A stretch of DNA of 64,000 bases from a bacterium (GTDB lineage: Bacteria > Hinthialibacterota > Hinthialibacteria > Hinthialibacterales > Hinthialibacteraceae). The first letter of the stretch is position 1. The number at the start of each line of letters is the position of its first letter. Shown here one piece after another: positions 1,263 through 19,432 of this stretch. The notes under the pieces were generated by a model that was not told the origin of the DNA, made no database searches, and was given only the letters and a program-made list of their open reading frames with translations. The DNA is taken from contig CAXXSM010000022.1 of the NCBI GenBank assembly GCA_963663405.2, positions 32,001 through 96,000 on the forward strand. Reading direction: 5' to 3'. The translations under genes and the position numbers were made by a program.

Positions 1263-1378
1263 TGTAAACGAACCACCCCGCTCAACCGTTGATTTTAAAA
1301 AGAGGATCAACGAAACTGAACGAGAAAAGGTGGGGCGTTCGGCGCCGCAAACAACAAATTAATCACATCAATAAAACA

Positions 1379-2749
1379 ATGAATAAATCACCTGATCCAC
1401 GAAGTCTGCTGCCTTCCGTCGATCGTGTCTTGAACAGCATGAGCGCGGCGCCGGATATGGAGCGTTTTTCCCATCAGCAAAAAGTTGACGCCACTCGGTT
1501 GGTTTTAAACCAGATGAGGGTGGATTGGAGCGGCGAGACAGGTCCATCCAGCGAAGAAATCGCTCAGAAAGCCGCGTCTCTCTTAAAAGCGCGGGACCGG
1601 TCCGGTATCCGGCGCGTCGTGAACGGCGCCGGAATCATTTTGCATACAGGCCTGGGCCGGGCCGTCGTTCCCCGCGAGGCGATGGACGCGATCGCGGAAC
1701 TGGATGGATACTGCAGCCTGCAGATCAATTTAGAAGATGGTTCACGCGGCCGGCGCGACGCTGTGATTGAGGAAATCTTACAAACGATAACAGGAGCTGA
1801 AGCGGCCACGGTGGTGAATAACAACGCGGCGGCGACGCTGCTTGTATTGGCGGCGTTATGCCAGGGGAAAGAACTGATCGTCTCGCGCGGGCAATTGATT
1901 GAGATCGGCGGCTCATTCCGCCTGCCTGATGTGATCGCGCAAAGCGGGACGGTGATGGTGGAGGTGGGAACGACCAATAAAACCCATCTGCGGGATTACG
2001 CCAACGCGATCACGGAAGAAACGCGCGTCCTGCTGCGCGTCAATCCGAGCAATTACCGCATCATCGGTTTCAGCCAATCCATCTCAACCGCTGAGCTGGT
2101 GACGTTGAAAGAAGGGCGGGATCTGATTGTCGTAGACGATCTTGGCTGTGGCGCGCTGGTTGATCTAAGCCTGTATGGACTGCCGAAAGAACCTACCGTG
2201 CAGGATAGTATCGCGGCGGGCGCGGACGTGGCGCTGTTCAGTGGGGATAAACTGATTAGCGGACCACAATCCGGGATTATTGTGGGTAAGAAAGAATACA
2301 TCGCCAAAATTCGGAAACATCCCTTAGCGAGGGCGATGCGGGTGGGTAAATTCACCATCGCGGCGCTGGAAGCGACTTTGAAATTGTTCCTCAATCCCGA
2401 TACATTGGTGGAAAACCATCCCACTTTACGCATGATCTCCATGAAACTTCCCACCTTGCGTCAGAAAGCGCAGTTTCTCGCGCAACGGCTTTCTTCCATT
2501 ATTCCATGCCAGGTCATCGAGGAACAAAGCGCCTGCGGGGGCGGCTCGCTGCCGGACTGCCCGCTCGATACCGCGGTTGTATCCATGCGTCATGAACGGC
2601 TGAATGCGGCTGAATTCGCGCAGCGCCTGCGCATGGGAGAGCCATCCATCATCACCCGCGTTCAGAATGAGGCTGTTCTGATTGATGTACGGACATTGCA
2701 GGATGGCGACGAAGAGCGAATTGAAGCCGCGATCAAAAAACTCAAATGA
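1379..2749 (+). CDS. selA: L-seryl-tRNA(Sec) selenium transferase (selenocysteine synthase)
   Basis: Motifs LPSVD, VVNGAGIILHTGLGRA, VNNNAAA, SRGQLIEIGGSFRLPDV, EVGTTNKTH, FSGDKL (PLP Lys), HPLARAMR. Start at ATG 1379 inferred. Confidence 0.96.
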   Translation: MNKSPDPRSLLPSVDRVLNSMSAAPDMERFSHQQKVDATRLVLNQMRVDWSGETGPSSEEIAQKAASLLKARDRSGIRRVVNGAGIILHTGLGRAVVPREAMDAIAELDGYCSLQINLEDGSRGRRDAVIEEILQTITGAEAATVVNNNAAATLLVLAALCQGKELIVSRGQLIEIGGSFRLPDVIAQSGTVMVEVGTTNKTHLRDYANAITEETRVLLRVNPSNYRIIGFSQSISTAELVTLKEGRDLIVVDDLGCGALVDLSLYGLPKEPTVQDSIAAGADVALFSGDKLISGPQSGIIVGKKEYIAKIRKHPLARAMRVGKFTIAALEATLKLFLNPDTLVENHPTLRMISMKLPTLRQKAQFLAQRLSSIIPCQVIEEQSACGGGSLPDCPLDTAVVSMRHERLNAAEFAQRLRMGEPSIITRVQNEAVLIDVRTLQDGDEERIEAAIKKLK

Positions 2750-2782: not shown

Positions 2783-3994
2783 ATGAATTCAGATTGCTCT
2801 GGAAATCCACCTCAACCACAACCATCCGAATGCTGTCAAACGAAGTCCACCTGCGCGCAAAGCCCGATAGCGCGTTTTGAAAACATGATCCCCAACGCGC
2901 TGGCGTTCGCGCAGGACGCCAAAGCCAAGGGGCAGAAAATCGCGGGGATCTTCTGTGAATATGCGCCGCGTGAATTGTTCTTCGCCGCCGGGATGGTTCC
3001 TATTTGCATGTGCGGAGGACAACAATCCACCATTCCCGAAGCGGAGACGGAACTTCCCAGCAATCTCTGTCCAGTGATTAAATCCAGCTATGGCCACCAT
3101 CTCAAAAAATCCAATCCTTTCTTGGAAATGTCCGATCTCATCGTCGCGGAAACGACATGCGACGGGAAGAAGAAAATGTATGAGTTGATGAGCCACGGCC
3201 GCAACATCCACGTCATGGAATTACCCCAAAAACCAGATGAACAAACCGCCTTCAATCATTGGCTCAACGAACTCCATCTTTTGAAAGAGAAGATCGAAGA
3301 AGTAACAGGAAAGACAATCGATCGGGAAGCGTTATTAAGCGCGATTGAGAGAATGAATGAAGAACGCGATCTGCGGCGGGAAATCGCCTATCTAGCCTCT
3401 GAGAATCCACCCTTGGTCACTGGCAAAGAAGCGCTGCTCGCGAAAAGCAGCGTCTCGCTGATCCCCTGTGACATAGCGGGATACAAGAAAATTCTCGAAT
3501 GGGCGAAAAACCGGCCCAGCCCCTACAATGGACAGCTCCGGATTTTAATGACAGGCGTTCCCCATCCGCACGGAGCCGAGAAAGTGATGGAGATCGTGGA
3601 GGAGTGTGGCGGCGCGATCGTCGCGCAGGAAAACTGCACAGGACTCAAACCGATCATGGACAACGTAGTTACCGACAGCGATCTAATGGAAAATCTCGCC
3701 CGGAAGTATTTTGATCTGCCCTGCTCCTGTATGACCCCCAATCAAGGACGAACCGATTTGCTCAACCGGCTTATAAATGATTTTAAACCGGATGGTATGA
3801 TCGATCTTGTTTGGCAGGCCTGTCATACCTACAACATCGAAGCGGAATTGATCCGCCGGGAAGCGCGGACACGCTGGAATCTTCCCTATCTGAAATTAGA
3901 AACCGATTATTCCCCCTCCGACCGGGCGCAGTTAACAGTGCGTGTGGAGGCGTTTTTGGAATTATGCCGGTCGAATGGATCGAAGAAATCTTGA
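2783..3994 (+). CDS. 2-hydroxyacyl-CoA dehydratase family protein, double-cubane [8Fe-9S] reductase (DCCP)-like
   Basis: Cys pattern FCEYAP, MCGG, NLCP, ETTCDGKKKMYE, ENCTG, CSCM, QACHTY and C-terminal ETDYS..D..Q...RVEAFLE. Confidence 0.85.
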   Translation: MNSDCSGNPPQPQPSECCQTKSTCAQSPIARFENMIPNALAFAQDAKAKGQKIAGIFCEYAPRELFFAAGMVPICMCGGQQSTIPEAETELPSNLCPVIKSSYGHHLKKSNPFLEMSDLIVAETTCDGKKKMYELMSHGRNIHVMELPQKPDEQTAFNHWLNELHLLKEKIEEVTGKTIDREALLSAIERMNEERDLRREIAYLASENPPLVTGKEALLAKSSVSLIPCDIAGYKKILEWAKNRPSPYNGQLRILMTGVPHPHGAEKVMEIVEECGGAIVAQENCTGLKPIMDNVVTDSDLMENLARKYFDLPCSCMTPNQGRTDLLNRLINDFKPDGMIDLVWQACHTYNIEAELIRREARTRWNLPYLKLETDYSPSDRAQLTVRVEAFLELCRSNGSKKS

Positions 3995-4188: not shown

Positions 4189-5841
4189 ATGCGGTTTCCT
4201 GAAAAACGTAAAACCATTATGGCGCGATCGATCGCGTTGGGGCATTGCGTCTGCAATCCGAAATTGAAATGCCCCTGCCCATCACTGATTAATGAAAACT
4301 TATGTCCCTGCGCGGGGGAACGGCGCGATCCCCCGAAAGGCCCGGTCCGTCTGACCGAATATGTGCGCAAGGTTGGCTGCGCGTCGAAAATCAATCACCG
4401 CGATCTGCATACCGTCTTGGCGCAGCTGCCCACATTTGACGATCCCCATGTAATCTTAGGTGTAGCGGCGGGCGATGACGCCGGTGTCTACGACATTGGC
4501 GGCGATTACAACATCGTTCAGACGGTTGACGTTTTCTCGCCGGTGATTGATGACGCGTATACGTTTGGGCAGATCTGCGCCGCCAATTCTGTCAGTGATA
4601 TTTACGCGATGGGAGGGCGGCCGGTCTGCGCGCTATCGATCATCGGCTTTCCCATTGAGGATCTGCCCCATGAGGTGATGGCCGAAATCCTGCGCGGCGG
4701 GATTGAGACGCTGCGGGAAGCGAATGTCAGCGTGATCGGCGGACACAGTATCAACGATGAAGAAATCAAAGGCGGCTTCGCAGTAACAGGATTGATCAAC
4801 GGCGGCGGAAGCGTAACGGTCAGCGGCGCGCGTCCAGGCGACCGGCTCGTTCTCACCAAACCTATTGGCACAGGCGTCATCGCTTTTGCCAACCAGATCG
4901 CCCGCGCGTCAGAAGACGCCCTTAAATTGATCGGTCAAATCATGGCCGGACTCAACAAAGACGCGGCGGAACTCATGATCGCGCATGGCGCGCATGCCTG
5001 CACCGACGTGACAGGCTTCAGCCTGTTAGGTCATCTTACCGAAATGACACGCCACAGCGGCGTGAGCGCCCGAATCGACACCGCCACCATACCATTCCTC
5101 GCCGAAGCGATCGGGGGCGCCCGGCAGGGAATCATTCCCGGCGCGATCGAACGCAACAAAGAAGCGTTCTCACAAGGCATTTCCACCGATGGCGAAGAGG
5201 ATGCGCTGCTCAATCTACTCTATGACGCTCAAACCTCCGGCGGTCTTTTAATCGCTTTGCCAGAAGAGGGAGTGGGGCCTTTTATCAAAGCGATGCGGTC
5301 ACGCGGTCATGAAGCGGTTTCGGAAATCGGAACCATCGTGGAACCAGAAGAATCACTCATTCATGTCACCCTTAACGAATCCACAAATCTCGTGGGTGTC
5401 TATCAAGAGATCCCCCCGAAAGAAAAACCGGAACCCATTCAACCCAGCGCCGAACCACTCGCCTGTTGTGAGAATCCTCCCAGCGCGGAGGTTAAAAAAT
5501 CCGTTACAGATAGCGCCTCAAAACCGTCCCTATCTATGGCGCTTGGATCTCCCTCCGCGGAGCAAACGGCATCCAGCGAAGCGTTTAAACAATTCATGAA
5601 AAGCGTCAATACGCCAGGGAGCCTCGATGCGCGGATGAAGCGGTTGTTGAACGTCGCCTTAGCCACAGCGCAGCGGTGCGAACAATGCCTGCAGATCCAT
5701 ATCGAACACGCGTTGTCTGAAGGGATCTCCCGCGGCGAGATCGATGAAGCCGCCTGGCTGGGTATTTCATTCGCTGGCGCCCCGGCGAAATTGTTCTACG
5801 AAGAAACATGGCGGGAATTGGATAGGAAAGATAAGTCATAA
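4189..5841 (+). CDS. selD: Selenide, water dikinase (Cys-type) with N-terminal Cys-rich extension and C-terminal AhpD/CMD-like domain
   Basis: RLTEYVRKVGCASK, DDAGV, QTVDVFSP, AANSVSDIYAMGG, LTKPIGTG, TDVTGFSLLGHL, DAQTSGGLLI. Tail LDARMKRLLNVALATAQRCEQCLQIH is CMD-like with CxxC. Confidence 0.93.
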   Translation: MRFPEKRKTIMARSIALGHCVCNPKLKCPCPSLINENLCPCAGERRDPPKGPVRLTEYVRKVGCASKINHRDLHTVLAQLPTFDDPHVILGVAAGDDAGVYDIGGDYNIVQTVDVFSPVIDDAYTFGQICAANSVSDIYAMGGRPVCALSIIGFPIEDLPHEVMAEILRGGIETLREANVSVIGGHSINDEEIKGGFAVTGLINGGGSVTVSGARPGDRLVLTKPIGTGVIAFANQIARASEDALKLIGQIMAGLNKDAAELMIAHGAHACTDVTGFSLLGHLTEMTRHSGVSARIDTATIPFLAEAIGGARQGIIPGAIERNKEAFSQGISTDGEEDALLNLLYDAQTSGGLLIALPEEGVGPFIKAMRSRGHEAVSEIGTIVEPEESLIHVTLNESTNLVGVYQEIPPKEKPEPIQPSAEPLACCENPPSAEVKKSVTDSASKPSLSMALGSPSAEQTASSEAFKQFMKSVNTPGSLDARMKRLLNVALATAQRCEQCLQIHIEHALSEGISRGEIDEAAWLGISFAGAPAKLFYEETWRELDRKDKS

Positions 5842-5971
5842 CTTGAAACTCAATCGCTCGATCCGTCGTATTAGTAAGAGTAAGGGCGGGCAAATCGATT
5901 TGAATGCCCCATTCCTGTTTGGGAATGATAAAACCAAGTGGTTACTCTTAAATCGAAATGGAGGAAAGCGG

Positions 5972-7849
5972 ATGTACAATCGAGTGAGTGTCTTGTATGT
6001 AATTACAGTTATGAGTTTTTGTCTTGCGGGTGGAGCCGTTCTCTTGATGGCGGCTTCGGATGTAGAAACAGTAACGATAGGGGCAACGGTTCCAGACATT
6101 GAAGCGGATAGTATTGAAGGGCTTCCAGTCTCTTTCCGTCCGCCGGAGGGAAAGATTCTGCTCGTTCAGTTTATGGATTCAAGCGCAGATCAAGCCGATG
6201 AATCCATCCGGGATCTAATCATTCTCTATGGACGTTTCCGTGAGAGCGGTTTACATCTTTTAAATGTGTTTATGGATACTAACGAGGATCAAGTCATCCG
6301 TTTTTCAACACGGTGGCAGGTCCCCTGGGCGCAGGTGTTGGACGCGGATATGGAAGGCGAAAGAGCCTCTCAAGTTTTCGGCGTTAAAGAATTCCCCTGC
6401 AATTTCCTGCTCGATTCAGATGGCAAGATTCTCGCATTAAATCTCACTGGAGAGAACGCGCACAACTTAATCGCCGAACAGCTGAACGTCTCACTCGATT
6501 CCCTGCCAATGCCCGAAGCGCCCACACCGATCTCCGAAGGAGGATCGAGCAACCGGGATGCGATAATCGCTACGGCGTCCCGCGTTCCAACAATTAATCT
6601 GCTGGGCACGAAACAAGAACGCGAAGAAGTGGAAGCCTGTAAAGAATACCTTCGGAAAATCAGCCTCGCTCTCACGGCTTACAAGCAGGATCATGATGGG
6701 GAGCCGCCGAATTGGCTTCACGAACTGTTTCCCAAATACCTCCAAGATGAGAAAATTCTTATATGCCCTTGCCCTTTGGCTAGATCCGTCCAGACACAAT
6801 TAAAACTCGATCCAGAGATGAGATGCAGTCATTTATACGAATTTGCTCCATCGGAATTGACCGGGGGAGAGTATTCATCCTATAGGGAATGGAAAAAATC
6901 TCAACTTAACCAGTTTGGAGACAAAACGCCTATTGTGCGTTGTCTGTACCATTCGAGACCTTTGAGTTTATCGTATGGAGGCGAAATCTATTTCAGTTCG
7001 CAGGTTTGGGAAAATGATTTTCCGCAGGGCTGCAGCATCCATGATCCTGACGCGAAAACTCGAAAAGCAATGATGGACATCGCGCTCGCGCTGGATCGAT
7101 ACAAGAAAGAGAATAACACGATACCAGATGAACTTAGGGATCTTTATCCGAAATACATCCGAAACGAGACATTTTACCTCTGTCCCAGCACTGAACAGCC
7201 ATTTTCCTATCAGTTTTCGAAAAAATCCGGTTTGCGGGAATGGAAAACAGAACAGCTAAAGATCTACGGCGGTTATGTGCCCATCGTCCGGGCTCGGGGG
7301 GTTCTTAGAAACGGGAATGTCATCAATCTGGCGTACAATGGCGAGATCTACGAAAGCCCCAGTGTTTGGGAGACTCTCTTCATTCGTGACAGAGCCGCGA
7401 TACTGAAATCAACGGCCGCCGATCGAAAAGCCATTTCCGCACAATCCCCAGAAATAAGCAAGGCGGAAATAGATATGCGTTCGTTATCGGTCGCGCTCGA
7501 ATCCTTTTTTATTGATAACAATACCTACCCTCTTCCACTAGAAGGGCAGTCCATCGACAAAGTAGGGATTAAAACCAGTTCCAGAACGATTCGTCTGACT
7601 ACACCCGTCCGGTACATCACTAAAATACCCAAAGATCCGTTTTCGAAAGAATCCGGTTACTACCATTATCACAGTGATGGGAAAAATTTTTACATTCTGG
7701 CCTCTGACGGCCCCGATCAGAAGCCGGATTTCGATGTGAAACAATACGATCCGGGCAAAGGTTCGAAGAAAAATGATCTCAAAACCTTTACCTACGATCC
7801 CTCAAACGGATTAAACAGCCGAGGTGACCTTTTCAAAGTAGGACCTTAA
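5972..7849 (+). CDS. Exported protein, paralog A1: Cys-less TlpA/redoxin fold, two pilin-head-like modules, GspG-like C-terminal domain
   Basis: GGAGG before ATG 5972. N-terminal hydrophobic segment. GKILLVQF..FGVKEFP.NFLLDSDGKI redoxin pattern without CxxC. C-terminal DNNTYP..RLTTPVRYITKIPKDPF..SDGPD..YDPSNG. Confidence 0.7.
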   Translation: MYNRVSVLYVITVMSFCLAGGAVLLMAASDVETVTIGATVPDIEADSIEGLPVSFRPPEGKILLVQFMDSSADQADESIRDLIILYGRFRESGLHLLNVFMDTNEDQVIRFSTRWQVPWAQVLDADMEGERASQVFGVKEFPCNFLLDSDGKILALNLTGENAHNLIAEQLNVSLDSLPMPEAPTPISEGGSSNRDAIIATASRVPTINLLGTKQEREEVEACKEYLRKISLALTAYKQDHDGEPPNWLHELFPKYLQDEKILICPCPLARSVQTQLKLDPEMRCSHLYEFAPSELTGGEYSSYREWKKSQLNQFGDKTPIVRCLYHSRPLSLSYGGEIYFSSQVWENDFPQGCSIHDPDAKTRKAMMDIALALDRYKKENNTIPDELRDLYPKYIRNETFYLCPSTEQPFSYQFSKKSGLREWKTEQLKIYGGYVPIVRARGVLRNGNVINLAYNGEIYESPSVWETLFIRDRAAILKSTAADRKAISAQSPEISKAEIDMRSLSVALESFFIDNNTYPLPLEGQSIDKVGIKTSSRTIRLTTPVRYITKIPKDPFSKESGYYHYHSDGKNFYILASDGPDQKPDFDVKQYDPGKGSKKNDLKTFTYDPSNGLNSRGDLFKVGP

Positions 7850-8156
7850 AAATAATAATTGAAATAGATCAAAGCCTTTTCCTTAATAAATTGTATCAAA
7901 ATACGAACAACGATAGTAACATTCAGGTAAACAGATAGAGATCACTAAACAGCGTGATTGTTTTACTCGTTAATTAATAATGAATAAGCGCCTTTCTGTT
8001 CGCATCGAAACCGCCTTTCTCAGGCCGGTTCGATTTGGAATGGCGTCTCATGAAAGTTGAAAAAAAAACAATAAAATAAGGGGAATTATTTCAATTCTCT
8101 TTCGTATATTCTTGAGAGACATTGTCTTGATTCCCAAAAACGGCGAATTCACATCG

Positions 8157-8250
8157 AAACCATCATAATTGAGATTACAACTGCAGATGAAAATGAGTTG
8201 CGAGAGTAATCACGAACGAGAAAGTCTCGGAAACTCATTTAAATATAAAA
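8157..8250. repeat. ~94-bp dispersed intergenic element with long inverted repeat, copy 1
   Basis: AAACCATCATAATTGAGAT..ATGAAAATGAGTT..AACTCATTT; other copies at 22056 and 24307. Confidence 0.85.
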
Positions 8251-8263
8251 TGGAGAAAAATGG

Positions 8264-10174
8264 ATGAGTAAACGAATTAGTGTTTTTTATACGGTCACAG
8301 TTCTAAGTCTCTTTCTCTCAGGCGCCGCGGTTTTATTGATCTCGGCGCAGGATATGGAAACAGTATCCATTGGCTCAACGGTTCCCGATATTGAGGCCTA
8401 TAGTATTGAAGGGCTTCCGGTCTCTTTCCACCCACCGGAGGGAAAGATTCTTCTCGTTCAATTTATGAAATCAAGCGATGAACAGGCGGATGAATGCATC
8501 CGGGACCTAATCGTCCTTTATGGGCGTTTCCGGGAAAGTGGTTTGCTTTTATTGTGCGTGTTTATGGATACGGATGAAGACCAGGTAGTCCGTTTTTCAA
8601 CCCGATGGCAAGTCCCCTGGCCGCAGGTGTTGGACTCAGATGTGGATGAAGAGAGACCATCACAAGTTTTTGGTGTCAAAGAATTCCCTGCCAATTTCCT
8701 GCTTGATTCCACTGGAAAGATTCTTGCGTTGAATTTGACTGGTGAGAGCGCCCATAATGCGATCGCCGAACAACTGAATGTTTCCCTCGACTCTCTGCCG
8801 GTTCCTGAAGCGCCTTCCCCCATTTCCGAAGGAGGGCCGGGAAGCCGGAATGTGGTTATGACAACAGCTCCATCCGTTCCAAGCGTTCCAAAAGTGAATC
8901 TGCTGGGCACAAAAAAGGAGCGTGAAGAAGCGGAAGCCTGCAAAGAAAACCTCCGGAAAATCAGCCTTGCGATTACGGCCTACAAACAAGATCACAACGG
9001 GGAGCCGCCAAACTGGCTGCATGAACTGTTTCCTCAATACCTTCAGGATGAAAACGTTCTCTTATGTCCAAGCGATCCCACGCATGAAACCCGCTTTGCG
9101 TATTTGATCGATAAAAAAATGAAGTGCGGCTATTTATACGAATTCGCACCCGCCCCCAATTCGACGGGATGGAATAATCAGCCCTGGCGGGATTGGAAGA
9201 AATCTCAACTCCATGAGTATGGTGACAAAACGCCACTCGTCGGCTGTTATCATCATTCCCGCAAATTGAATCTATCGTATGGCGGAGAGATCTATTTCAG
9301 TTCCGAGGTCTGGGAAAATGATTTTCCACAGGGTAGCACAATCAATGATCCCGACGCAAAAACCCGGAAGAAACTGATGGACATCGCAGTTGCGCTGGAT
9401 CGATATAAAAAAGAGAAGAAAACCGTTCCCGATGAGCTGAAGGACCTTTATCCAAAATACATCCGAAACGAGACTTTTTACCTCTGCCCGGCCACTAATG
9501 AGTCCTTCTCCTATCAATTTTCGAAACAATCAGGATTGCGGGATTGGAAAAAAGAACAGTTGAAGATCTACGGCGGTTACGTGCCTATCGTCCGCGCGCG
9601 CGGAGCGCTTAAAAACGGGAACGTCATTAACTTGGCGTATAATGGGGAGATCTACGAAAGCCCCAGTGTCTGGGAGACTTTATTCATTCGTGACAGCGCC
9701 GCGATACCAAAAACGACGGCGGCTGATCGAAAAACCACTTCTACACGATCCACACGAACCATGGAAATTGCCCGCACGGAAGCGGAAATGCGCATATTAT
9801 CAAACGCGCTGGAATGTTTCTTCATCGATAACAATACATACCCATTTCCACTGGAAGGGCAAACGATCGATAAGGCCGGTATAAAAATCGGTTCCGGTTC
9901 GAGAGCGAGATATCTTCGCTTAACCACACCCGTCGCTTACATCTCAACAATACCCAAAGATCCATTCTCGAAAGAGTCCAACGCCTACCGCTATCACAGC
10001 GATGGGAAGAATTATTACATCCTGGCCTCTGACGGCCCGGACCGGAAAATCGATTTCGATCTGAAGAAATTTGATCTCAGCAAAGGATCAAAAAACGACG
10101 ATCTCACACCCTTTACCTATCATCCCTCGAATGGATTGACCAGCCAGGGGGATCTTTTCCGGGTTGGACCGTGA
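8264..10174 (+). CDS. Exported protein, paralog A2 (same architecture as A1)
   Basis: Closely similar to 5972-7849 over the full length. Confidence 0.75.
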   Translation: MSKRISVFYTVTVLSLFLSGAAVLLISAQDMETVSIGSTVPDIEAYSIEGLPVSFHPPEGKILLVQFMKSSDEQADECIRDLIVLYGRFRESGLLLLCVFMDTDEDQVVRFSTRWQVPWPQVLDSDVDEERPSQVFGVKEFPANFLLDSTGKILALNLTGESAHNAIAEQLNVSLDSLPVPEAPSPISEGGPGSRNVVMTTAPSVPSVPKVNLLGTKKEREEAEACKENLRKISLAITAYKQDHNGEPPNWLHELFPQYLQDENVLLCPSDPTHETRFAYLIDKKMKCGYLYEFAPAPNSTGWNNQPWRDWKKSQLHEYGDKTPLVGCYHHSRKLNLSYGGEIYFSSEVWENDFPQGSTINDPDAKTRKKLMDIAVALDRYKKEKKTVPDELKDLYPKYIRNETFYLCPATNESFSYQFSKQSGLRDWKKEQLKIYGGYVPIVRARGALKNGNVINLAYNGEIYESPSVWETLFIRDSAAIPKTTAADRKTTSTRSTRTMEIARTEAEMRILSNALECFFIDNNTYPFPLEGQTIDKAGIKIGSGSRARYLRLTTPVAYISTIPKDPFSKESNAYRYHSDGKNYYILASDGPDRKIDFDLKKFDLSKGSKNDDLTPFTYHPSNGLTSQGDLFRVGP

Positions 10175-10229
10175 TAGAATGCGCTGTCAAGAACAATCAC
10201 ATCACAACGAGAGATGAGGTTTTCCAAAC

Positions 10230-12278
10230 GTGGTTTCTTACAGAACACTATTCATCCGGACGGCGGTCCTTCTTTTCCTAACCAATGGATTTTTTAGTTC
10301 AATGGAACTCTTTGGACAGGAAGGAAATTTGAAGGTGGGGGATATTTTCCCCGAATTTGATGTCGAGAGCATCGAAGGGCTTCCTATTTCCTTCCGTCCG
10401 CCGGATGGAAGTCTGTTACTGGTTATCATCTGGGATACCAATTCTCCACGGGCTGAAGACGCGGCCCGCGATACAATTGTTCTCTATAAACGGTTTCACG
10501 ATTCGGGATTCGATGTTGTTGGCATCTGTACCAATCTATCGGAAGGAGGTGTGGAGGAATTCTCCACACTCTGGACAATTCCCTGGCCCCAGGCGATGAA
10601 CGAGGATATCGAAGGGGCGGATACAACCGAACAACTCGGTATCCTCGAACTGCCCATCACGTATCTGCTCGATTCAGACGGGCGGATCCTCGCGATCTCA
10701 CCAAAGGGTGACCGGGCGCATGCGGCCATCGCCGGTTATCTTGGAGTATCACTCGACGATCTCCCCAAACCTGCGATGCCCGCAAAACGGACCAAACCAT
10801 CATTTGAACCGAGTGGAATGACACAAACACCTAGAGAAGGCGCGTATTCACTCTTGGGATCATTGGAAGAGCGTGAACGGGTAGAACCATGCCGGAGCAA
10901 TCTACGGCAAATTGGAATCGCGCTGACGAGTTATCAACTCGATCATGAAGGGGAATGGCCTAACTGGCTGTCGGACCTGTATCCAAAGTATCTGCAGGAT
11001 GAATCAATTCTGCTCTGCCCCAATCATCCCTCCGCCACTGTGTATCGGGGATTGATCGATCCCAAAATGAAATGCAGTTATGTCTACGAATTCGCGCCGA
11101 TTGAGTGGGATGGCGCCATTTACCGGGATATCCAAAAAGCGAAATTGGAAATCTATGGGGATAAAGTTCCCGTCGTGCGGTGCCTCAAATGCCTTGAAGA
11201 CGGGCGCGCGCTCAACTTGAGCTACGGCGGTGAGATCTATTTAAGCGGAGAGATTTGGGAAGACGATATGCCGACGGACAACGACCTCGAAGACGCCGCC
11301 TCCGAGATTCGTCAGCAGTTTCGCCAAATCGCCGCCGTCATCCATCGCTACAAGAAAGAACACGGGAAAATCCCGGATGAACTGGACACGCTTCATCCCG
11401 ATTACATCCCGGATGTAAAAACACTATCCAATCCCGTCACGGGTTGGATCTATTCCTATGAATTCAGCCCGAACATCCCCAATCCATATACGGAGGATGG
11501 TGAAACGCTTTTTGATTACCGGACGAAACAGATGGAAGAATTCGGCGGGTATGTGCCCATGATCCGCGCCGCGGGTATCCTCGACAAGCAGAATGTGATC
11601 AATCTGTCGTATCATGGAGAAGTCTGGCAAAGCACGATGAATTGGGAAGGAGATCTTCATTCCAGCACGGGACCAATGGTCTGGCTGCCAGGTGATCCAC
11701 CGGGAAAACAGATCGATCCCGATCATCAACTGGAAAACTGGCGCGGGAATGTGGCCAGAGGAACCATAACGATTCAAAAAGATGAGCAGATCCGCTCAAT
11801 CTGCGGCTCGTGGCAGATGGATAAGGAGATGATCCAGCAAACGGATATTCACGCCAAACCTGCGGCCTTGATCTTTGAACCGGTTATCGAAAAAGGAGAA
11901 ATCCGGCTTCGCGCCCGTGTAATGGATGGAAAGAACGGATTCCGGATTGTGTTTGGATACAAACCGACAGAAGAACACTACGCCTGGACCATCGGCGGAC
12001 AAGAGAACAAAGTCAACACATTGGATAAACGCTCTACCCTGCGGGAGATCAAATTTTACAATGTTCTGAATGATCCGGAGCCCTACAACGTCCAACAGAA
12101 AATTTGGTATACAATCCGTTTGCTAGTCGATGCGGATAAGCGCACAGTGGTAGGTTATCTGAACGGAGAGAAACGATTGTCTATTACACTGGAGGAAGAA
12201 ACGTTGAAAGGCCGGTTCGGCCTGACGGTCAATGAAACTATCGCCGAATTCGACCAGATTTCCATAACCGGAAAATAA
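10230..12278 (+). CDS. Exported protein, paralog A3: Cys-less redoxin, pilin-head-like modules, C-terminal beta-sandwich (concanavalin/DUF1080-like) domain
   Basis: Shares SIEGLP.SFRPP.G, NWL..L.PKYLQDE.IL.CP, YEFAP and LSYGGEIY with A1/A2; the last ~200 aa differ. Confidence 0.7.
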   Translation: MVSYRTLFIRTAVLLFLTNGFFSSMELFGQEGNLKVGDIFPEFDVESIEGLPISFRPPDGSLLLVIIWDTNSPRAEDAARDTIVLYKRFHDSGFDVVGICTNLSEGGVEEFSTLWTIPWPQAMNEDIEGADTTEQLGILELPITYLLDSDGRILAISPKGDRAHAAIAGYLGVSLDDLPKPAMPAKRTKPSFEPSGMTQTPREGAYSLLGSLEERERVEPCRSNLRQIGIALTSYQLDHEGEWPNWLSDLYPKYLQDESILLCPNHPSATVYRGLIDPKMKCSYVYEFAPIEWDGAIYRDIQKAKLEIYGDKVPVVRCLKCLEDGRALNLSYGGEIYLSGEIWEDDMPTDNDLEDAASEIRQQFRQIAAVIHRYKKEHGKIPDELDTLHPDYIPDVKTLSNPVTGWIYSYEFSPNIPNPYTEDGETLFDYRTKQMEEFGGYVPMIRAAGILDKQNVINLSYHGEVWQSTMNWEGDLHSSTGPMVWLPGDPPGKQIDPDHQLENWRGNVARGTITIQKDEQIRSICGSWQMDKEMIQQTDIHAKPAALIFEPVIEKGEIRLRARVMDGKNGFRIVFGYKPTEEHYAWTIGGQENKVNTLDKRSTLREIKFYNVLNDPEPYNVQQKIWYTIRLLVDADKRTVVGYLNGEKRLSITLEEETLKGRFGLTVNETIAEFDQISITGK

Positions 12279-12422: not shown

Positions 12423-13949
12423 ATGAAGTGTGCCAAGTCTTCCCTCCTGGGATTGGTTTTCATCGCCGCCTCCGCGTTTCTCTTCGCGGATACCGCCTCC
12501 GCGGTTTCCTGCAAACTGGAGTTGAAACGGCTTGAAGATAAATCTTCAATGGTACGGAGCGCGCAGGATGAGGACTATATCCTGCGGAGGGTAAGCAGAC
12601 AGTACTTTTCATGGCGTCCGGACCGGGATACCATTCCCGAATTTACAAACGCTGTGAAAAAAGAACCGCCGAAGTATGAGTATGAAAATCCTTACAAAGG
12701 CGTGATGACGTTGGGTTCCGATAAATACTTATTTGTATTGGATTCGAGCGATATCAACACGAAAGGATTTCATAAACTCTACTTCGACCGCAATCTCAAC
12801 GGCGATTTGACGGATGATTCCGTCATTGAAGCCATGGCGCTGCCAACCGGCGTTAACTTCGGCCCCGGCTCGATGCGCCGGGAATTTCCCCGGCAGGACC
12901 TGATGGTGAACGTGGATGGCAAGAAGCATGATTATTCGGTCTTTTTCGAAGCCTATTCCGACACACGGGATGGAGGAAATCTTCGGTACGCCTACACGCA
13001 AGCCGGCGCCGGCGCCTATCGCAAGGGAGAAGTGGAATTGGAGGGCAAAACGCATTCCATTTTCCTGCTCGATTTCAACAGCAACGGCCGTTTTGACGAT
13101 GTGACGACTGTAAACGAAAATGTCCAATACAGCAATGGCCGGATTTATCCTTCGCAGGGCGACCGGATCTTGCTTGATTTTAGCGCGCAGAACACCGATC
13201 CCTCGTATTACAATCTGACGGGCCGTAAAGACCGTGTGCCTGTCGCCAAACTGGTTTTCGTGAATGGGAAGTATTACGAGATGACGGTCTCTCCCTCCGG
13301 AGATTCCATCGAACTCACCCCATCCACAACGCCAACCGGTTCGATTGAGAACTCGAACGATGTGTTTGACGTCGCCCTTTACAACAAAGAGGGCGTGCTC
13401 AAACTGAACGGCAAGAAAGGCGACAAAATTTCTGTGCCGGAAGGTGAATGGAAGCTGCTCGAATATACGATCGATCTAACCGACTCCTCCAACACATCTG
13501 GACGGCAAGGCTGGACTTTGATCGCCGCTTCCGGAACGAAGAATTGCCCAACCGTGAAAGTAGAGAAAGGGAAAACCGTTGAATTTCCCTTCGGCAGCCC
13601 CTTCAAACCTCTCGTTCAGACGCAGCCCATGGGCCGCTCGAACGGTCAGGTGGAACAAGTGCGGCTGAGTCTGGAATTTACAGACTGTTCCGGCGCGATC
13701 TGCACGAATCTCTACGTCAACGGAAACCGCCCTCCCGATCCCACCTTCGCGATCGCCACACCCAGCAATGAAATCGTGGAGCGCGGCAAGTTTGAATATG
13801 GCTGAGGCTTTACCTGTTCGTACACATGGCGTGTACCTTCTAAACTGCAAGATGAATACCGCGTCCATGTCCGCATGAATGCAGGACCTTTCAAAGTCGA
13901 TAAAAAAGCATACAGCGTGATCAAATCATCAACACTGAAAGGATTGTAA
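12423..13949 (+). CDS. Candidate secreted selenoprotein B1 (508 aa, Sec461 at TGA 13803-13805)
   Basis: RBS AGGAGG, signal peptide. After the TGA the frame reads GFTCSYTWRVPSKLQDEYRVHVRMNAGPFKVDKKAYSVIKSSTLKGL to TAA 13947-13949. SECIS-like hairpin present; gene lies between selD and selB. Confidence 0.88.
13820..13836 (+). promoter_or_regulatory. Putative SECIS hairpin of B1
   Basis: GTACAC-ATGGC-GTGTAC, starting 14 nt after the TGA. Confidence 0.75.
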
Positions 13950-13992
13950 GCGCCTCTTTCAGCAGGACTTACCTATGCGCGGAATAATCATA

Positions 13993-14021
13993 ACGGGGCG
14001 GGACTTGAAATCCCGCCCCGT
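13993..14021 (+). terminator. GC-rich hairpin (terminator/REP-like) after the extended B1 ORF
   Basis: ACGGGGCGGGA-CTTGAAA-TCCCGCCCCGT; U tract is weak. Confidence 0.6.
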
Positions 14022-14120
14022 GTTCTCTCACAGGTGAGGAAATATGGTATTAGGGAAAGACGAAATACCAACCGAATCCAAATCGAAAAGTCAATTCGAT
14101 AGAAAGGACGGTTAGAGATT

Positions 14121-15650
14121 ATGAACTCCTGCAAGCGTTCCCTCTTTGGATTCGTTCTCATCCTTGGCGCCCTGTTTCTCATCCTTGATCCCGCACACGG
14201 TGCGACCTTCAAACTGGAGTTGAAACGGTTTGAAGATAAATCTTCACTCATACTAAGTAATGAAGAGGAAAGAATTCTTCAAAAAGTAAAAACCCAGTAT
14301 TTACCGTGGGATCAAGAGCGTTCTATGACACCGGCTTTCATAAAAGCCGTAAAAAAAGAACCCACTGTATATGAATCGAATACACTGTACAGAGGTGTGA
14401 TCCAATTCGGATCGGATCAATATGGTTTTGTATTGGATTCAAGCAATATCAAAAGGGAAGGTTTCAACAAACTCTATTTCGACCGCAATCTCAATGGCGA
14501 TTTGACGGACGATCCCATTATCGAAGCCAAGGCTTTGCCAAAAGGCGTACATTTTGGTTCTGGTATAATACTGCGGGAATTTCCCCGTCAGGATCTTACG
14601 GTGAACGTAGGAGGGAAATCGTACGATTATTCATTCTTTTTGACTGTATCATCCGATGAACGAGGTCCAATCCGGGGATCGCTGCAACACGCCCGCGCCT
14701 ACATCACCCCCGGCGCCTATCGCATGGGGAAAGTCGTATTGAATGGCAAAACGCATTCCATTTGCCTGCTTGATTTCAACAGCAACGGCCGTTTTGATGA
14801 TGTTACGGTAATACATGATAGAGTCAATAAAAGAACTAGCCGGATTTATTACACGCCTGGGGACCGGCTTCTACTCGATTTCAACCCGAAGAACGCCGAT
14901 CCTTCCTATTACAATCTGACGGGACGCGAAGACCGGGTTCCCGTTGCCAAGTTACTGTTCGTGGACGGGAAATATTATGAGATGACGGTCTCTCCATCGG
15001 GAGATTCTATCGAACTTATCCCCTCCACGGCGCCCACCGGTTTTATTCAGAACTCAAACGAAGTGTATGACGCCGCTCTCTACGGCGATCAGGGGATTCT
15101 CAAATTGACAGGGAAAAAAGGCGATCGAATTCCCATCCCGGCAGGAGAATGGAAACTATTGGAATATACGATTGATCTGACCGATCCAGAGAAAAGATTC
15201 CGGATCCCACACGCTTTGACGCTGATCTCCGCTGCAGGGACAAAGAACTGTCCATCGGTAAAAGTAGAGAAAGGTAAAACCGTCGAATTCCCATTTGGCG
15301 GCCCCTATAAACCTCTCGTCCAGGTGAGTTCTGTCGGTTTTGGAACAGCCATCCCCCAAGCGCGGTTGAGTCTGGCATTCACGGACTGCGCCGGCGCGAT
15401 TTGTACGAATCTATATGTAAAAGGAAACCGGCCGCCCAATCCATCGTTTACAATCGCTACGCCTAGCAATGAAATCGTGGAGCGCGGCAAGTTTGAATAT
15501 GGCTGAGGCTTCACCTGCGCGTACATATGGAATGTACCATTAAAACTTCATGATGAATACCACTTCCATGTCCAAATGAAAGCGGGACCATTTGAAGTCG
15601 ATAAAAATTCATACAGCGTGATTAAATCCTCAATGCTGAAAAGGAAGTAG
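14121..15650 (+). CDS. Candidate secreted selenoprotein B2 (509 aa, Sec462 at TGA 15504-15506)
   Basis: After the TGA: GFTCAYIWNVPLKLHDEYHFHVQMKAGPFEVDKNSYSVIKSSMLKRK to TAG 15648-15650. Confidence 0.88.
15521..15537 (+). promoter_or_regulatory. Putative SECIS hairpin of B2
   Basis: GTACAT-ATGGA-ATGTAC; compensatory C-G to T-A pair relative to B1/B3. Confidence 0.75.
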
Positions 15651-15817
15651 GTTTCTATTTCATGAAGAGGAAACAATGCAAGTATTACTCAAATGGGACT
15701 CAATTTTAATTCCCATTACATCTCCACCCTCAGGCAGGAGAGTATATAATAGGAAAGGTCATACAACCAGCCGTTCCTATCGAAACATCAATCCAATCGA
15801 AAGGATGGTAAAAATTC

Positions 15818-17347
15818 ATGAAGTTCGGCAAACGAATCTTTTTAGGATTCTTTCTCCTTCTCGTCGCTGCGTTTCTCTTCACGGATACTGCGAACGCAGT
15901 GACCTGTAAATTGGAATTGAAACGGTTTGAAGACAAATCATCAATGTATGAGACCGCTGGAGATGAAGAACCAATCCTGCGGAGAGTGAGAGGGCAGTAC
16001 CTGCGATGGCGGCGAGATCAGGCCACGACGGCGGATTTCGTCGAAGCCGTTAAAAAAGAACCGAAGTATGAGTCAGATATCCTGTACCGGGGTGTGATTA
16101 CCTTAGGTTCGGATCAATACGGTTTCGCGTTAGATTCAAGCGATATCATAAAAAATGGATTTCACAAATTCTATTTCGACCGCAATCAAAATGGTGATCT
16201 GACAGACGACGCCGTCATCGAAGCCATGCCATTGCCAAAAGGCGTCAACTTCGGTCCCGGCTTTATGCAACGCGAATTCCCCCGGCAGGACATGACAGTT
16301 AACACCGATGGCAAGAAGTATGATTATTCATTCTTCTTACTTGTGTATTCCGACACGCAGGGACAATCCGATGGATCACTGCGATACGCCTCCGCGCAGC
16401 TCAGCACAGGCGTGTATCGAAAAGGGGAAGTGGAACTCGACGGCCAACAACATACCATTCACTTGCTCGATTTCAATTGCAACGGCCGTTTCGATGATTC
16501 AACCACAATACGCGACGATATCCGGAACGATAATGGACGGATCTATCAAACACACGGCGATCGAATCATGCTTGATTTCAATGTTGAAAACGCCGATCCC
16601 GCGTATTACAATCTGACGGGACGGAAAGACCGTCTCCCCGTTGAAAAACTGTTATTCGTCAATGGGAAATATTATGATCTGACGGTTTCTCCATCGGGCG
16701 AATCTCTTGAATTCACTCCATCCAAGGCGCCACTCGGTTCGATTCAAAACAAGAACGAAGTGTTTGAATTCGCCCTCTACAACGATCAGAGTGTGCTCAA
16801 ACTGTCTGGCAAGAAAGACGATCCAATTCCCATCCCAGAAGGGGAATGGAAACTGCTTGAATACACAATCAATCTCACCGATCCAGCAAAAAGTTCCCAG
16901 GGCCGGCGATCGTGGACATTGCTCTCCGCCGCAGGGACCACGAACTGCAAACCGGTGAAAGTGGAGAAAGGGAAAACAGTTGAATTCCCCTTTGGCGGTC
17001 CCTACAAACCTCTAGTGCGGGTAAATCCGATGGGTTCAAACAACCAAGTGGATCAAGCGCGAGTAAGTCTAGAATTTATTGACAATGTAAGCGCGATCTG
17101 CACCAATCTCTACGTCAACGGAGACCGGCCGCCTGATCCAACTTTCGTCATCGCCACGCCCAATAATGAAATCGTGGAGCGCGGCAAGTTTGAATATGGC
17201 TGAGGCTTTACCTGTTCGTACACATGGCGTGTACCGACAAAACTTGAAGATGAATACCGTGTTCACGTTCGCATGAAAGCAGGGCCTTTTGAAGTTGATA
17301 AAAAAGCCTATAGCGTTATCAAACCTTCGATGCTTAAATTCAACTAA
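15818..17347 (+). CDS. Candidate secreted selenoprotein B3 (509 aa, Sec462 at TGA 17201-17203)
   Basis: After the TGA: GFTCSYTWRVPTKLEDEYRVHVRMKAGPFEVDKKAYSVIKPSMLKFN to TAA 17345-17347. Confidence 0.88.
17218..17234 (+). promoter_or_regulatory. Putative SECIS hairpin of B3
   Basis: GTACAC-ATGGC-GTGTAC, 14 nt after the TGA. Confidence 0.75.
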
Positions 17348-17478: not shown

Positions 17479-19432
17479 ATGAAAACAGGCAAACGAAAAC
17501 CATTCAAACCTGCCCGCAATCTCCCCCCACCCCTCAACGTCACCATTGGTGTGGCCGGTCATATTGATCATGGGAAGACCGAATTGGTGAAAATGTTAAC
17601 CGGCTGCGACACCGACCGGTTGAAGGAGGAAAAAGAACGGGGCATGTCCATCGAACTGGGATACGCGCCCCTGTCATGTCGGCGCCAACCGGGTGGGGAT
17701 CGTGGATGTGCCGGGTCATGAGCGTTTTATCCGCAACATGGTCGCCGGGGCCACCGGGATGGACATCACGTTGCTGGTCATCGCCGCTGATGACGGCGTG
17801 ATGCCGCAAACTCGCGAGCATCTCGATATCGCGCAACTCCTTGGCGTTCAGCGTGTGATCACAGCGATTACGAAAACCGATCTCGTCTCCCCGGATCGGA
17901 TTGAAGAAGTCCGGCGGCAAATTGAAACATTCTTAGAAGCGACCCGGTACGCAGGGGCTTCTATCACTCCCTGTTCATCCGTAACCGGTGAAGGATTGAC
18001 TGAACTGCGTCAACAGATGGACGCGGCGGTTCAAGCTGTCGAACGGAAAAAAACCAGTGGAATGTTCCGGCTGCCAATTGACCGGATCTTCACTTCCGAG
18101 GGGCATGGTGTTGTCGTTACGGGTATCGCGATTTCCGGCAGCGTGAAAGCCGGTGAGATGGTAGACCTGCTTCCATCTGGAAAAACCGGCCGTGTGCGCA
18201 GTTTGCAGGTTTATCTCGGCGATGCGGAAGAAGGCATCGCCGGACAATGTGTGGCGCTCAACTTGACGCAAATCGGAAAGGACGAATTCACACGCGGCGA
18301 CGTTCTCGCATCTCCAGGACGGTTCTCCGCTTATTATCGTTTTACCGCGCGGGTGCAATCTTCGCTCTTTTTAGAATCTCCGCTGCGGAATTCCGCCCGG
18401 ATCCGATTTCATACGGGAACATCGGAAACACGGGGAAAATTGCGGCTGATGAACGATGACTCCCTCGAACCGGGTCAAGAGACATTCGCTCAGATCGAGT
18501 TGGATGAACTCGTTCCTGCGTTTCTTCACGACCGGTTCATCATCCGGCTGGAATCGCCGCCCCGCACCGTCGCGGGTGGAACCATAATCGAATGCGGAGG
18601 TTTTCGCCGTAAACGTTTTCATGAGCCTGTTTTGCGTCAACTGCGGAATCGCTGGGACGCGTTATGTAATAATACCAAGTTAATTGAGATTCTGCTTGAA
18701 GAGACGCCGTTCCACTCTCAATCGATCGAAGAACTCGCGAAAGCGATAGGCGTCCCCAATTCTGAAGCGCAACAGTTGGTTCAAACGATTATCCAGAAAC
18801 AGAACGCGATCACGTTGAAAGAGAACCGTATTGTCTCATCTTCAGGATTGCGGAAAGCCGCTAATTATACGCTGGACACGTTGAAAAAACTGCACACCGC
18901 CCATCCCACCCGCTTTGCGTTTACAAAAGACGAAATCCGCGCCGGGATGCAAGAAGGTGAGGACCTGATTGACCCGGCTCTCGCGCGGCTTCTTAATGAA
19001 CACCGCGCGATTCTCTCCGGCTCTTCATACCGTGACGCCGAAGCGGTTGACGCGGATCCCCAAACGCTCGCGCTGGCGAAGCAAATCGAACGTCTTCTCT
19101 TCGAAGAGAAATTTAAAACTTCCTCCCCCGCGCAACTGGCGGAGAAACTGAGACGCCCTGTGGCCGCCATCGAATCCACATTCAAATATCTTGTTGAAAA
19201 AGGCGCCGCGATCCGGCTGGCAGAAACGGTCTATTTGCACAACAAGCATGTGGAATGGGCGAAAGAACAACTTATCAAAGCCATTCAACGGGATGGATTT
19301 TTTGAAACGCACCTTTTCAAAACCGTCATCGGAAGCAGCCGGAAATACGCGATCCCCCTATTGGATCATTTCGACGCCACGGGAGTCACCCGCCGCATTG
19401 GCGGCAAGCGTTATTTACAAGAGAAGAAATAA
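17479..19432 (+). CDS. selB: Selenocysteine-specific elongation factor, with one apparent frameshift (extra C in CCCC 17668-17671)
   Basis: [11 protein letters not shown] and [19 protein letters not shown] in one frame; [20 protein letters not shown] and winged-helix [13 protein letters not shown] in the next. Removing one C joins them. Confidence 0.92.

Follow-up and report, generated by a model that had tools for sequence, protein, structure and literature searches.

Three tandem genes with an in-frame TGA codon and a downstream hairpin

The window examined here, a stretch of 64,000 nucleotides from a bacterium of the phylum Hinthialibacterota (GenBank assembly GCA_963663405.2, contig CAXXSM010000022.1, positions 32,001 to 96,000 of the forward strand; coordinates below are those of the window unless another contig is named), harbours three paralogous genes in tandem, designated B1, B2 and B3, each of which is interrupted by one in-frame TGA codon and carries a short hairpin at a fixed distance downstream of it. 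We regard each hairpin as a probable bacterial selenocysteine insertion sequence (SECIS) element, with a probability of about 0.9, and the TGA as a codon predicted to be read as selenocysteine (Sec, U). The genes and their elements are as follows:

12423..13949, + strand: B1, candidate selenoprotein gene, paralog 1, translated with TGA as U; Sec codon 13803-13805
14121..15650, + strand: B2, candidate selenoprotein gene, paralog 2, translated with TGA as U; Sec codon 15504-15506
15818..17347, + strand: B3, candidate selenoprotein gene, paralog 3, translated with TGA as U; Sec codon 17201-17203
13803..13836, + strand: UGA, 14-nt spacer and putative SECIS hairpin of B1 (hairpin 13820-13836), GUACAC AUGGC GUGUAC
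15504..15537, + strand: UGA, 14-nt spacer and putative SECIS hairpin of B2 (hairpin 15521-15537), GUACAU AUGGA AUGUAC
17201..17234, + strand: UGA, 14-nt spacer and putative SECIS hairpin of B3 (hairpin 17218-17234), GUACAC AUGGC GUGUAC

With TGA translated as U, each gene contained only the one in-frame TGA and its frame remained open for a further 47 codons. The frame of B1 is open from 12285, and the ATG at 12423 is its likely start, as judged from an alignment of the signal peptides. The three genes were alignable over their full length with identities of 65-69% (69% between B1 and B3 in a search of their own genome, which returned these three copies only). The peptide surrounding the TGA reads EIVERGKFEYG-U-GFTCSYTWRVP in B1 and B3, and EIVERGKFEYG-U-GFTCAYIWNVP in B2.

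A first-pass annotation of the window had described, in all three genes, a TGA and, at a distance of 14 nt, a 6-bp stem closing a loop of 5 nt, and direct reading together with a pattern search bore this out in every detail. This pattern was matched three times in the sequence, with zero matches expected from 100 dinucleotide shuffles, and the distance from UGA to loop is 20 nt when counted after the A of the UGA (14-nt spacer plus 6-nt stem). Translation likewise confirmed an annotated difference between the paralogs, in that the closing pair C-G of B1 and B3 is replaced by U-A in B2 through two non-synonymous changes, Thr (ACA) to Ile (ATA) and Arg (CGT) to Asn (AAT), the latter of which also alters the fifth base of the loop (C to A). 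The three paralogs represent a single event by descent. The weight of the evidence comes from homologues and not from the window alone.

Conservation of the TGA codon and hairpin among homologues

Relatives were found in 9 of 35 genomes of the window's phylum (its own genome included), and every match spanning the site had TGA there. A scan of genome_contigs returned 162 relatives, the best 80 of which (79 loci) were kept; together with the phylum genomes, these loci yielded 123 unique contexts, of which 121 had TGA and the other two TGT and TGC, respectively. Metagenomes were scanned with a DNA motif for F[EQ][YF]G-x-GFTC, whereby TGA was found at x in at least 120 stretches and TGY in none. 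From 120 metagenome loci, 98 unique contexts were gained that had not been in the earlier set, among them additional variants of the stem. In the phylum to which a genome labelled Planctomycetaceae belongs, 401 genomes were sampled and 23 had matches; the 58 matches comprised 49 with TGA, eight without a stop and one with TAA. The frame and peptide downstream of the TGA were conserved across more than 200 sequences with 30-69% overall identity, and the same hairpin was present in genomes labelled Planctomycetota, Omnitrophota, Spirochaetia and Nealsonbacteria metagenome-assembled genomes (MAGs). Judged from its codons, the family is widespread and almost always Sec-using.

Some copies among the relatives were irregular. 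In one, TAG replaced the Tyr codon that lies two codons upstream of the TGA (NFE*G*); two TGA codons were present in each of three matches, and one metagenome copy had a 13-nt spacer that breaks the frame. These copies, located at L104:5359-5418, G004:C72:25589-27127, G133:C222:1079-1435 and G082:C15:21957-22349, may represent pseudogenes, errors of sequencing or, where TGA is doubled, a second site for Sec.

The 117 TGA contexts that remained when four members of a distant subfamily were left out were aligned without gaps, and the RNAalifold consensus of this alignment was exactly the 6-bp stem. Standard pairs were formed in 689 of 690 cells, and four of the six pairs had double-sided changes (22 cells). 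Neither the observed pairing nor the covariation score was reached in any of 500 shuffles, a control that overstates the result since the sequences are related. Sliding the 3' arm by 1-3 columns lowered the pairing to 16-67%. In the merged set with metagenome sequences (213 unique sequences), all six pairs were formed in 197 and a single mismatch was present in 13, the remaining three being register shifts or a 1-nt deletion; every one of the six pair positions was occupied by at least two Watson-Crick types. A FastTree phylogeny was built from upstream regions of 104 proteins, leaving out the hairpin, and on this tree the state of the stem had changed at least 19 times, including at least five changes at pair 5 and at least three at pair 6. 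Covariation across homologues, on which the first-pass annotation had staked its proposal in advance, was present. A seventh pair (columns 23-41) could be formed in only 73 of 115 sequences and did not covary, and was placed outside the conserved core.

Members of the distant subfamily, with the motif FEYG-U-GGTC-x-ASVRMP, have a different peptide and a different hairpin (GGCUUC-CGUGC-GAA(U)GCC) at the same place.

RNA pairing and the encoded peptide

The stem is encoded within the codons for x-Tyr-(Ser/Thr)-Trp-Arg-Val-Pro, so the peptide alone could preserve part of the stem. Synonymous sites decide between constraint on RNA and on protein. The codon before Tyr, whose third base G pairs with a C of the Pro codon, was NNG in 116 of 117 sequences, irrespective of whether it encoded Ser, Ala, Arg, Gly, Gln or Thr (background 34%). 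Val was encoded by GTA in 106 of 116 cases (91%, relative to 6.6% in the same genes), by GTG in the other 10 and never by GTC or GTT, whilst Arg was CGA in 98 of 109 cases (16% in the same genes). The third base of the Arg codon and its partner base were tallied as A:T 9, T:A 168, C:G 2, T:G 3 and C:C 2. Where Tyr was replaced by His (U to C), Val was GTG in 11 of 11 cases, and Tyr TAT was seen with Ile ATA only (5 of 5). These patterns support the hairpin being under selection as RNA, as had been proposed from the closing pair of B2; compensatory changes were found at every pair, and the synonymous sites follow the pairing.

Other compensations altered both of the encoded residues, namely Ser/Arg to Leu/Gln, Tyr/Val to Cys/Ala and, in the window, Thr/Arg to Ile/Asn. 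As read from these alignments, compensatory change keeps the pairing intact, in part at the cost of protein sequence, and it is in this sense, of residues changing on both sides, that the annotated claim of pairing which overrides the protein holds. The constraint of an in-frame SECIS upon the downstream peptide is itself already established; PMC10778597 describes point mutations that engineered in-frame SECIS elements made necessary. The present family offers a natural example in which an RNA signal and a protein sequence share the same bases, with compensation both at synonymous sites and as coupled residue changes.

A codon preference was also observed within the spacer, where the Thr codon of U-G-F-T-C (13812-13814, 15513-15515 and 17210-17212 in the window) was ACC in 90 of 102 Thr cases, relative to 40% in the same genes. 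This ACC could pair with the GG of the Gly codon and the A of the UGA to close a mini-helix of 3 bp, which was seen in some folds, or alternatively could serve as context for UGA decoding.

Relatives without TGA

All six pairs were formed in register in 218 of 241 unique TGA contexts versus none of the non-TGA relatives, in which at most three of six were formed, though these comparators number only 10 and are divergent. They comprised four with Cys codons (L253, L256, L092 and L114) and six with other residues at the aligned position. L253 and L256 encode FEYS-C-GGVC with TGC at the aligned codon, and L092 and L114 have TGC and TGT, respectively. Retention of the hairpin in Cys-codon homologues had been named in the annotation as contrary evidence, and all four of these homologues lacked it. 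In the four relatives that have Val-Pro and a residue other than Cys at the aligned codon, Val was GTC or GTG. A search for homologous proteins with residues 380-509 returned two proteins, both ending at the U position, which are too few to judge Cys forms.

The window itself contains an open reading frame (ORF; 3-1262) whose product includes a domain akin to the distant U-GGTC-xASVRMP subfamily but with neither Sec nor Cys (NQFHAWIGGTAEGGIHYGAVRMPFFAYGTYT), followed by a hydrophobic, membrane-like C-terminal half. A partial helix is possible from its G..RMP codons, and this ORF was considered uninformative as a comparator and was not used.

Selenocysteine machinery on the same contig

Genes for Sec synthesis and insertion surround B1-B3, together with three tandem AhpC/TSA-type paralogs:

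1289..2749, + strand: selA, selenocysteine synthase (TIGR00474, 530.6 bits; Pfam SelA, E 4e-137)
4189..5841, + strand: selD, selenophosphate synthetase with a C-terminal CMD/AhpD-like fusion (TIGR00476, 342 bits; Pfam AIRS, AIRS_C and CMD)
5744-7849, 8264-10174 and 10230-12278: AhpC/TSA-type paralogs, three in tandem between selD and B1
17479..19432, + strand: selB, Sec-specific elongation factor, presumed reader of the hairpin (TIGR00475, 250.2 bits against a cut-off of 242.25; Pfam GTP_EFTU, Beta-barrel_SelB and SelB-wing_3)

All three sel genes scored above their NCBIfam cut-offs. A tRNA-Sec lies approximately 930 nt before the start of the window (RF01852, 69.2 bits against a gathering score of 47; ARAGORN tRNA-SeC, anticodon TCA), such that the full set of tRNA-Sec, selA, selD and selB is encoded on the same contig as B1-B3. 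The latter are placed between selD and selB, with selB directly following B3. The selA frame ends at a TGA, and reading this codon as U would fuse selA to the next gene; TGA is an ordinary stop here, which argues against a changed genetic code.

Between selA and selD, the gene at 2783-3994 encodes a member of the 2-hydroxyglutaryl-CoA dehydratase D-component family (HGD-D, E 1e-100). Amongst the AhpC/TSA-type paralogs, those at 5744-7849 and 8264-10174 matched AhpC/TSA, Thioredoxin_8 and T2SSG, with an additional weak DUF1559 match in 8264-10174, and that at 10230-12278 matched AhpC/TSA only. These three AhpC/TSA-DUF1559-like genes (5744-12278) were considered as selenoprotein genes and rejected, having no internal in-frame TGA.

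Comparison with known SECIS elements and scan of the genome

Zhang and Gladyshev's general model of the bacterial SECIS (bSECIS), in the summary given by PMC13188914, specifies a loop of 3-9 nt, an upper stem of 4-16 bp, a distance from UGA to loop of 16-37 nt, one or more G at loop positions 1-2, commonly with G or U next, and an energy of -7.5 kcal/mol or lower. The window hairpins agree with it in their in-frame position after the UGA, their 5-nt loop, their 6-bp stem and the 20 nt that separate UGA and loop, a geometry which the first-pass annotation had judged plausible for SelB binding and which falls within the 16-37 nt of the model. Most relatives can also form an 8-bp stem with a UGG triloop (3 nt), likewise within its limits. 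The loop contains a G with G or U after it, and the rule on where that G stands is followed by 160 of 213 relatives (GUGGC, or a UGG triloop closed by G-C).

The SECIS of Escherichia coli fdhF, whose helix is longer, is in two parts with a bulged U and carries a loop of the GGUC type, is presumably alike in being a SelB-dependent stem-loop at a fixed short distance after the UGA, with a loop G as the presumed SelB contact. It differs in that the stem of the main family here is a plain one of 6-8 bp and has no bulge, a bulged U being found in the ASVRMP subfamily only.

Scanning the genome for the TGA-N14-hairpin layout, which the annotation had suggested as a route to more selenoproteins, revealed two further candidates of the UxxC type:

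G000:C76:130862-131224, + strand: AhpC/TSA-like gene with one in-frame TGA, U-P-A-C, TGA-N14-6bp-5nt hairpin
G000:C117:12748-13095, - strand: AhpC/TSA-like gene with one in-frame TGA, U-L-Y-C, TGA-N14-6bp-5nt hairpin

The TGA lies inside the Pfam match in both of these genes. They share with B1-B3 the 14-nt spacer, the 6-bp stem and a loop of 5 nt in which positions 3-4 are GG (AGGGA or CAGGG), but encode unrelated thioredoxin-fold proteins and have unrelated stem sequences; this genome probably has in them two more selenoprotein genes. When long open frames were required on either side, the strict descriptor TGA-N14-6bp-NNGGN was matched by exactly five genes in the genome (B1-B3 and the genes at C76:130967 and on C117), and with TAA in place of TGA, the spacing and the requirement for open frames being unchanged, there were three matches. 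The scan did not, however, yield an overall enrichment, as the strict descriptor had 26 matches among 323,058 TGA and was no commoner there than after control triplets; of these matches, the five flanked by long open frames alone carry meaning. A broader scan (TGA, 11-17 nt, 6-bp stem, a G-containing loop of 4-7 nt, and frames open on either side) produced 282 candidates and was too unspecific to be of use. Two tandem paralogs at C42:1048 and C42:2337 (+ strand) were rejected as selenoprotein genes, in that their 12-bp GC-rich stems (approximately -30 kcal/mol), followed by a U tract, were read as intrinsic terminators after true stops.

The suggestion that the hairpin defines a lineage-specific SECIS shape was not upheld; the geometry fits the general bSECIS model, the same hairpin occurs in genomes labelled as other phyla, and the same layout in two unrelated genes here. 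On the comparisons made, the hairpin looks like the ordinary SECIS form of these organisms, within the known model and not a new class, and UGA, 14 nt, 6 bp and a loop of NNGGN provides a simple SECIS descriptor for this genome.

Proposed mechanism and alternative explanations

A ribosome translating B1, B2 or B3 would meet the in-frame UGA with the stem-loop starting 14 nt downstream and the loop 20 nt away. SelB, carrying GTP and Sec-tRNA(Sec), would bind the stem-loop through its C-terminal winged-helix domains and deliver selenocysteine in place of termination by release factor 2, to give a secreted all-beta protein of approximately 510 residues with the motif FEYG-U-G-F-T-C. Both the binding of SelB and actual Sec insertion are steps that we infer. 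As the SECIS would lie inside the reading frame, RNA pairing and protein sequence would constrain each other.

Several observations weigh against this assignment, in addition to the relatedness of the sequences and the small number of non-TGA comparators mentioned above. The RNAfold z-scores of the three 70-nt contexts were +1.53, -0.60 and -0.67, no better than shuffles, and folding stability was discarded as a test since it does not single the hairpin out. The bare hairpins are weak (-5.8 kcal/mol in B1 and B3, -3.7 kcal/mol in B2) and fall short of the bSECIS energy of -7.5 kcal/mol; stretches of 60 nt that start at the UGA gave -8.6 (B1), -8.1 (B2) and -11.0 (B3) kcal/mol, and the passage of PMC13188914 names no segment for its value. 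When read as 5-nt loops, AUGGC and AUGGA lack a G at positions 1 and 2, their G residues being at positions 3-4. An Rfam cmscan of window positions 1-22000 at E up to 10 gave four weak matches, none at the hairpins and none to a SECIS family. The selB gene is split in the assembly into two overlapping frames, 17479-17721 and 17693-19432, with the first 80 codons (the GTP-binding start) in one frame and the other 579 in another; the change of frame, near 17665-17700 and close to a CCCC run, could stem from an error in the assembly or in a homopolymer, or could be a genuine frameshift. Lastly, Trp is retained in nine of the 10 non-TGA relatives and Val-Pro in five, indicating that the 3' arm and loop are partly fixed by the protein. 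The recurrence of these residues without Sec implies that the Trp codon, the source of the loop GG, was probably kept for the protein with the SECIS built around it. The W-x-V-P part was probably kept for the same reason, with the 5' arm and synonymous sites tuned to pair with it.

Taken further, this protein conservation raises the question of whether the palindrome is a mere by-product of the peptide x-Y-S-W-R-V-P with no function as RNA, the Ser/Arg, Leu/Gln and Ile/Asn couplings being i/i+2 contacts within a beta-strand. The structural model described below accommodates such contacts, in that residues 466-471 (C-S-Y-T-W-R) form a strand in which the side chains of i and i+2 could touch. 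It does not account for third positions that track pairing without altering the residue, including the bias to GTA, the near-invariant NNG and the choice of CGT, CGA or CGG for Arg according to the partner base, which largely refute it. Moreover, in the non-Sec relatives with W-x-V-P retained, Val is encoded by GTC or GTG and the hairpin is absent, and the A-S-V-R-M-P subfamily has a different hairpin at the same place. We consider a by-product of the peptide very improbable. Slightly less remote, although still very improbable, is that the hairpin acts without SelB, as a pause site, a stimulator of read-through or a determinant of mRNA stability, or that the UGA is read by a near-cognate tRNA or under a changed code. 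The split selB and the small, weak hairpin would be in keeping with this. It is opposed by the full Sec machinery alongside, by the ordinary stop function of TGA at the end of selA in the same operon, and by the occurrence of one TGA per gene at one conserved site with a Cys four residues on, where rare relatives have Cys in place of the TGA. The frequent adjacency of the family to sel genes in other genomes (detailed below), and the UxxC thioredoxin-fold selenoprotein genes with the same layout, also argue against it. Least probable is that the TGA is a true stop, with the 47 downstream codons a decayed tail or separate small gene and the hairpin akin to a terminator. Gene callers do end there, and the two database proteins that end at the U position cover 63% of the queried region, but the conservation of frame and peptide beyond the TGA contradicts termination, and direct reading found no U tract 3' of the B1-B3 hairpins, unlike the terminators on C42.

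The protein family

Searches of B1-B3 against Pfam-A and NCBIfam 20.0 returned no family at E up to 0.1, and two chance-level matches (11.7 and 12.4 bits) at E up to 1. The N-terminus appears on direct reading to be a signal peptide (MKFGKRIFLGFFLLLVAAFLFTDTANA). An AlphaFold2 model of B3, based on an alignment of nine sequences, had a pLDDT of 85.7 and a pTM of 0.82 and consisted of all-beta sandwich domains, with U462-G-F forming a one-turn helix after a strand and C466 starting the next strand. The product is predicted to be a secreted protein of approximately 510 residues with tandem Ig-like domains and the motif UG[FG]xC. Foldseek searches of the model against the PDB retrieved generic Ig/FN3-like tandem domains only (TM-score of at most 0.16 on the query), with no functional lead.

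DUF1573 (PF07610) is a beta-rich domain common in Planctomycetes. Its 'UGC' selenoproteins, which appear in a table of PMC13188914, are similar to the present family in having U followed by G within a protein of unknown function, but the domain had no match to B1-B3 at E up to 1 and the motif here is U-G-[FG]-x-C, not UGC. The passages of PMC13188914, PMC1794560, PMC4807772 and PMC10778597 drawn upon here name neither a UxxxC or UGxxC family nor a Planctomycetes-specific SECIS, whilst supplementary lists may hold the family; it could already be listed in PMC4807772 (Table S9) or among the candidates of two sources cited by the review PMC13188914, the deep-Sep and the groundwater-MAG studies. 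The selenoprotein family thus seems undescribed, with Cys almost never in place of Sec, and represents a widespread selenoprotein family that is cut at the UGA by gene callers.

The neighbourhoods of 248 homologue loci were searched by tblastn with the window proteins, the flanks being approximately 3 kb or less and some loci overlapping, such that the counts are not independent. Relatives of selD were found in 25 of these loci (mostly including the CMD fusion), of selB in 14 and of selA in 11. This linkage to sel genes and the near absence of Cys forms suggest, from gene order and codon usage, a role in selenium handling, and the repeated placement beside selD, selB and selA makes such a role testable. 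More tentatively, this undescribed, almost obligately Sec-containing secreted Ig-like family could be the selenoprotein that typifies the sel neighbourhood among Planctomycetota and allied phyla, perhaps acting in extracytoplasmic capture or hand-over of selenium or metal and not in thioredoxin-fold redox chemistry, although we hold this to be doubtful. If true, retention of the Sec trait by these lineages would be due to this family, a part that is ascribed to FdhA elsewhere.

Two features of the window's own gene order recurred. Coverage of the selD-CMD fusion by tblastn extended to residue ~540 beside the family in many other loci, and relatives of the AhpC/TSA-DUF1559-like upstream genes were found beside the selenoprotein family in 18 of the 248 loci.

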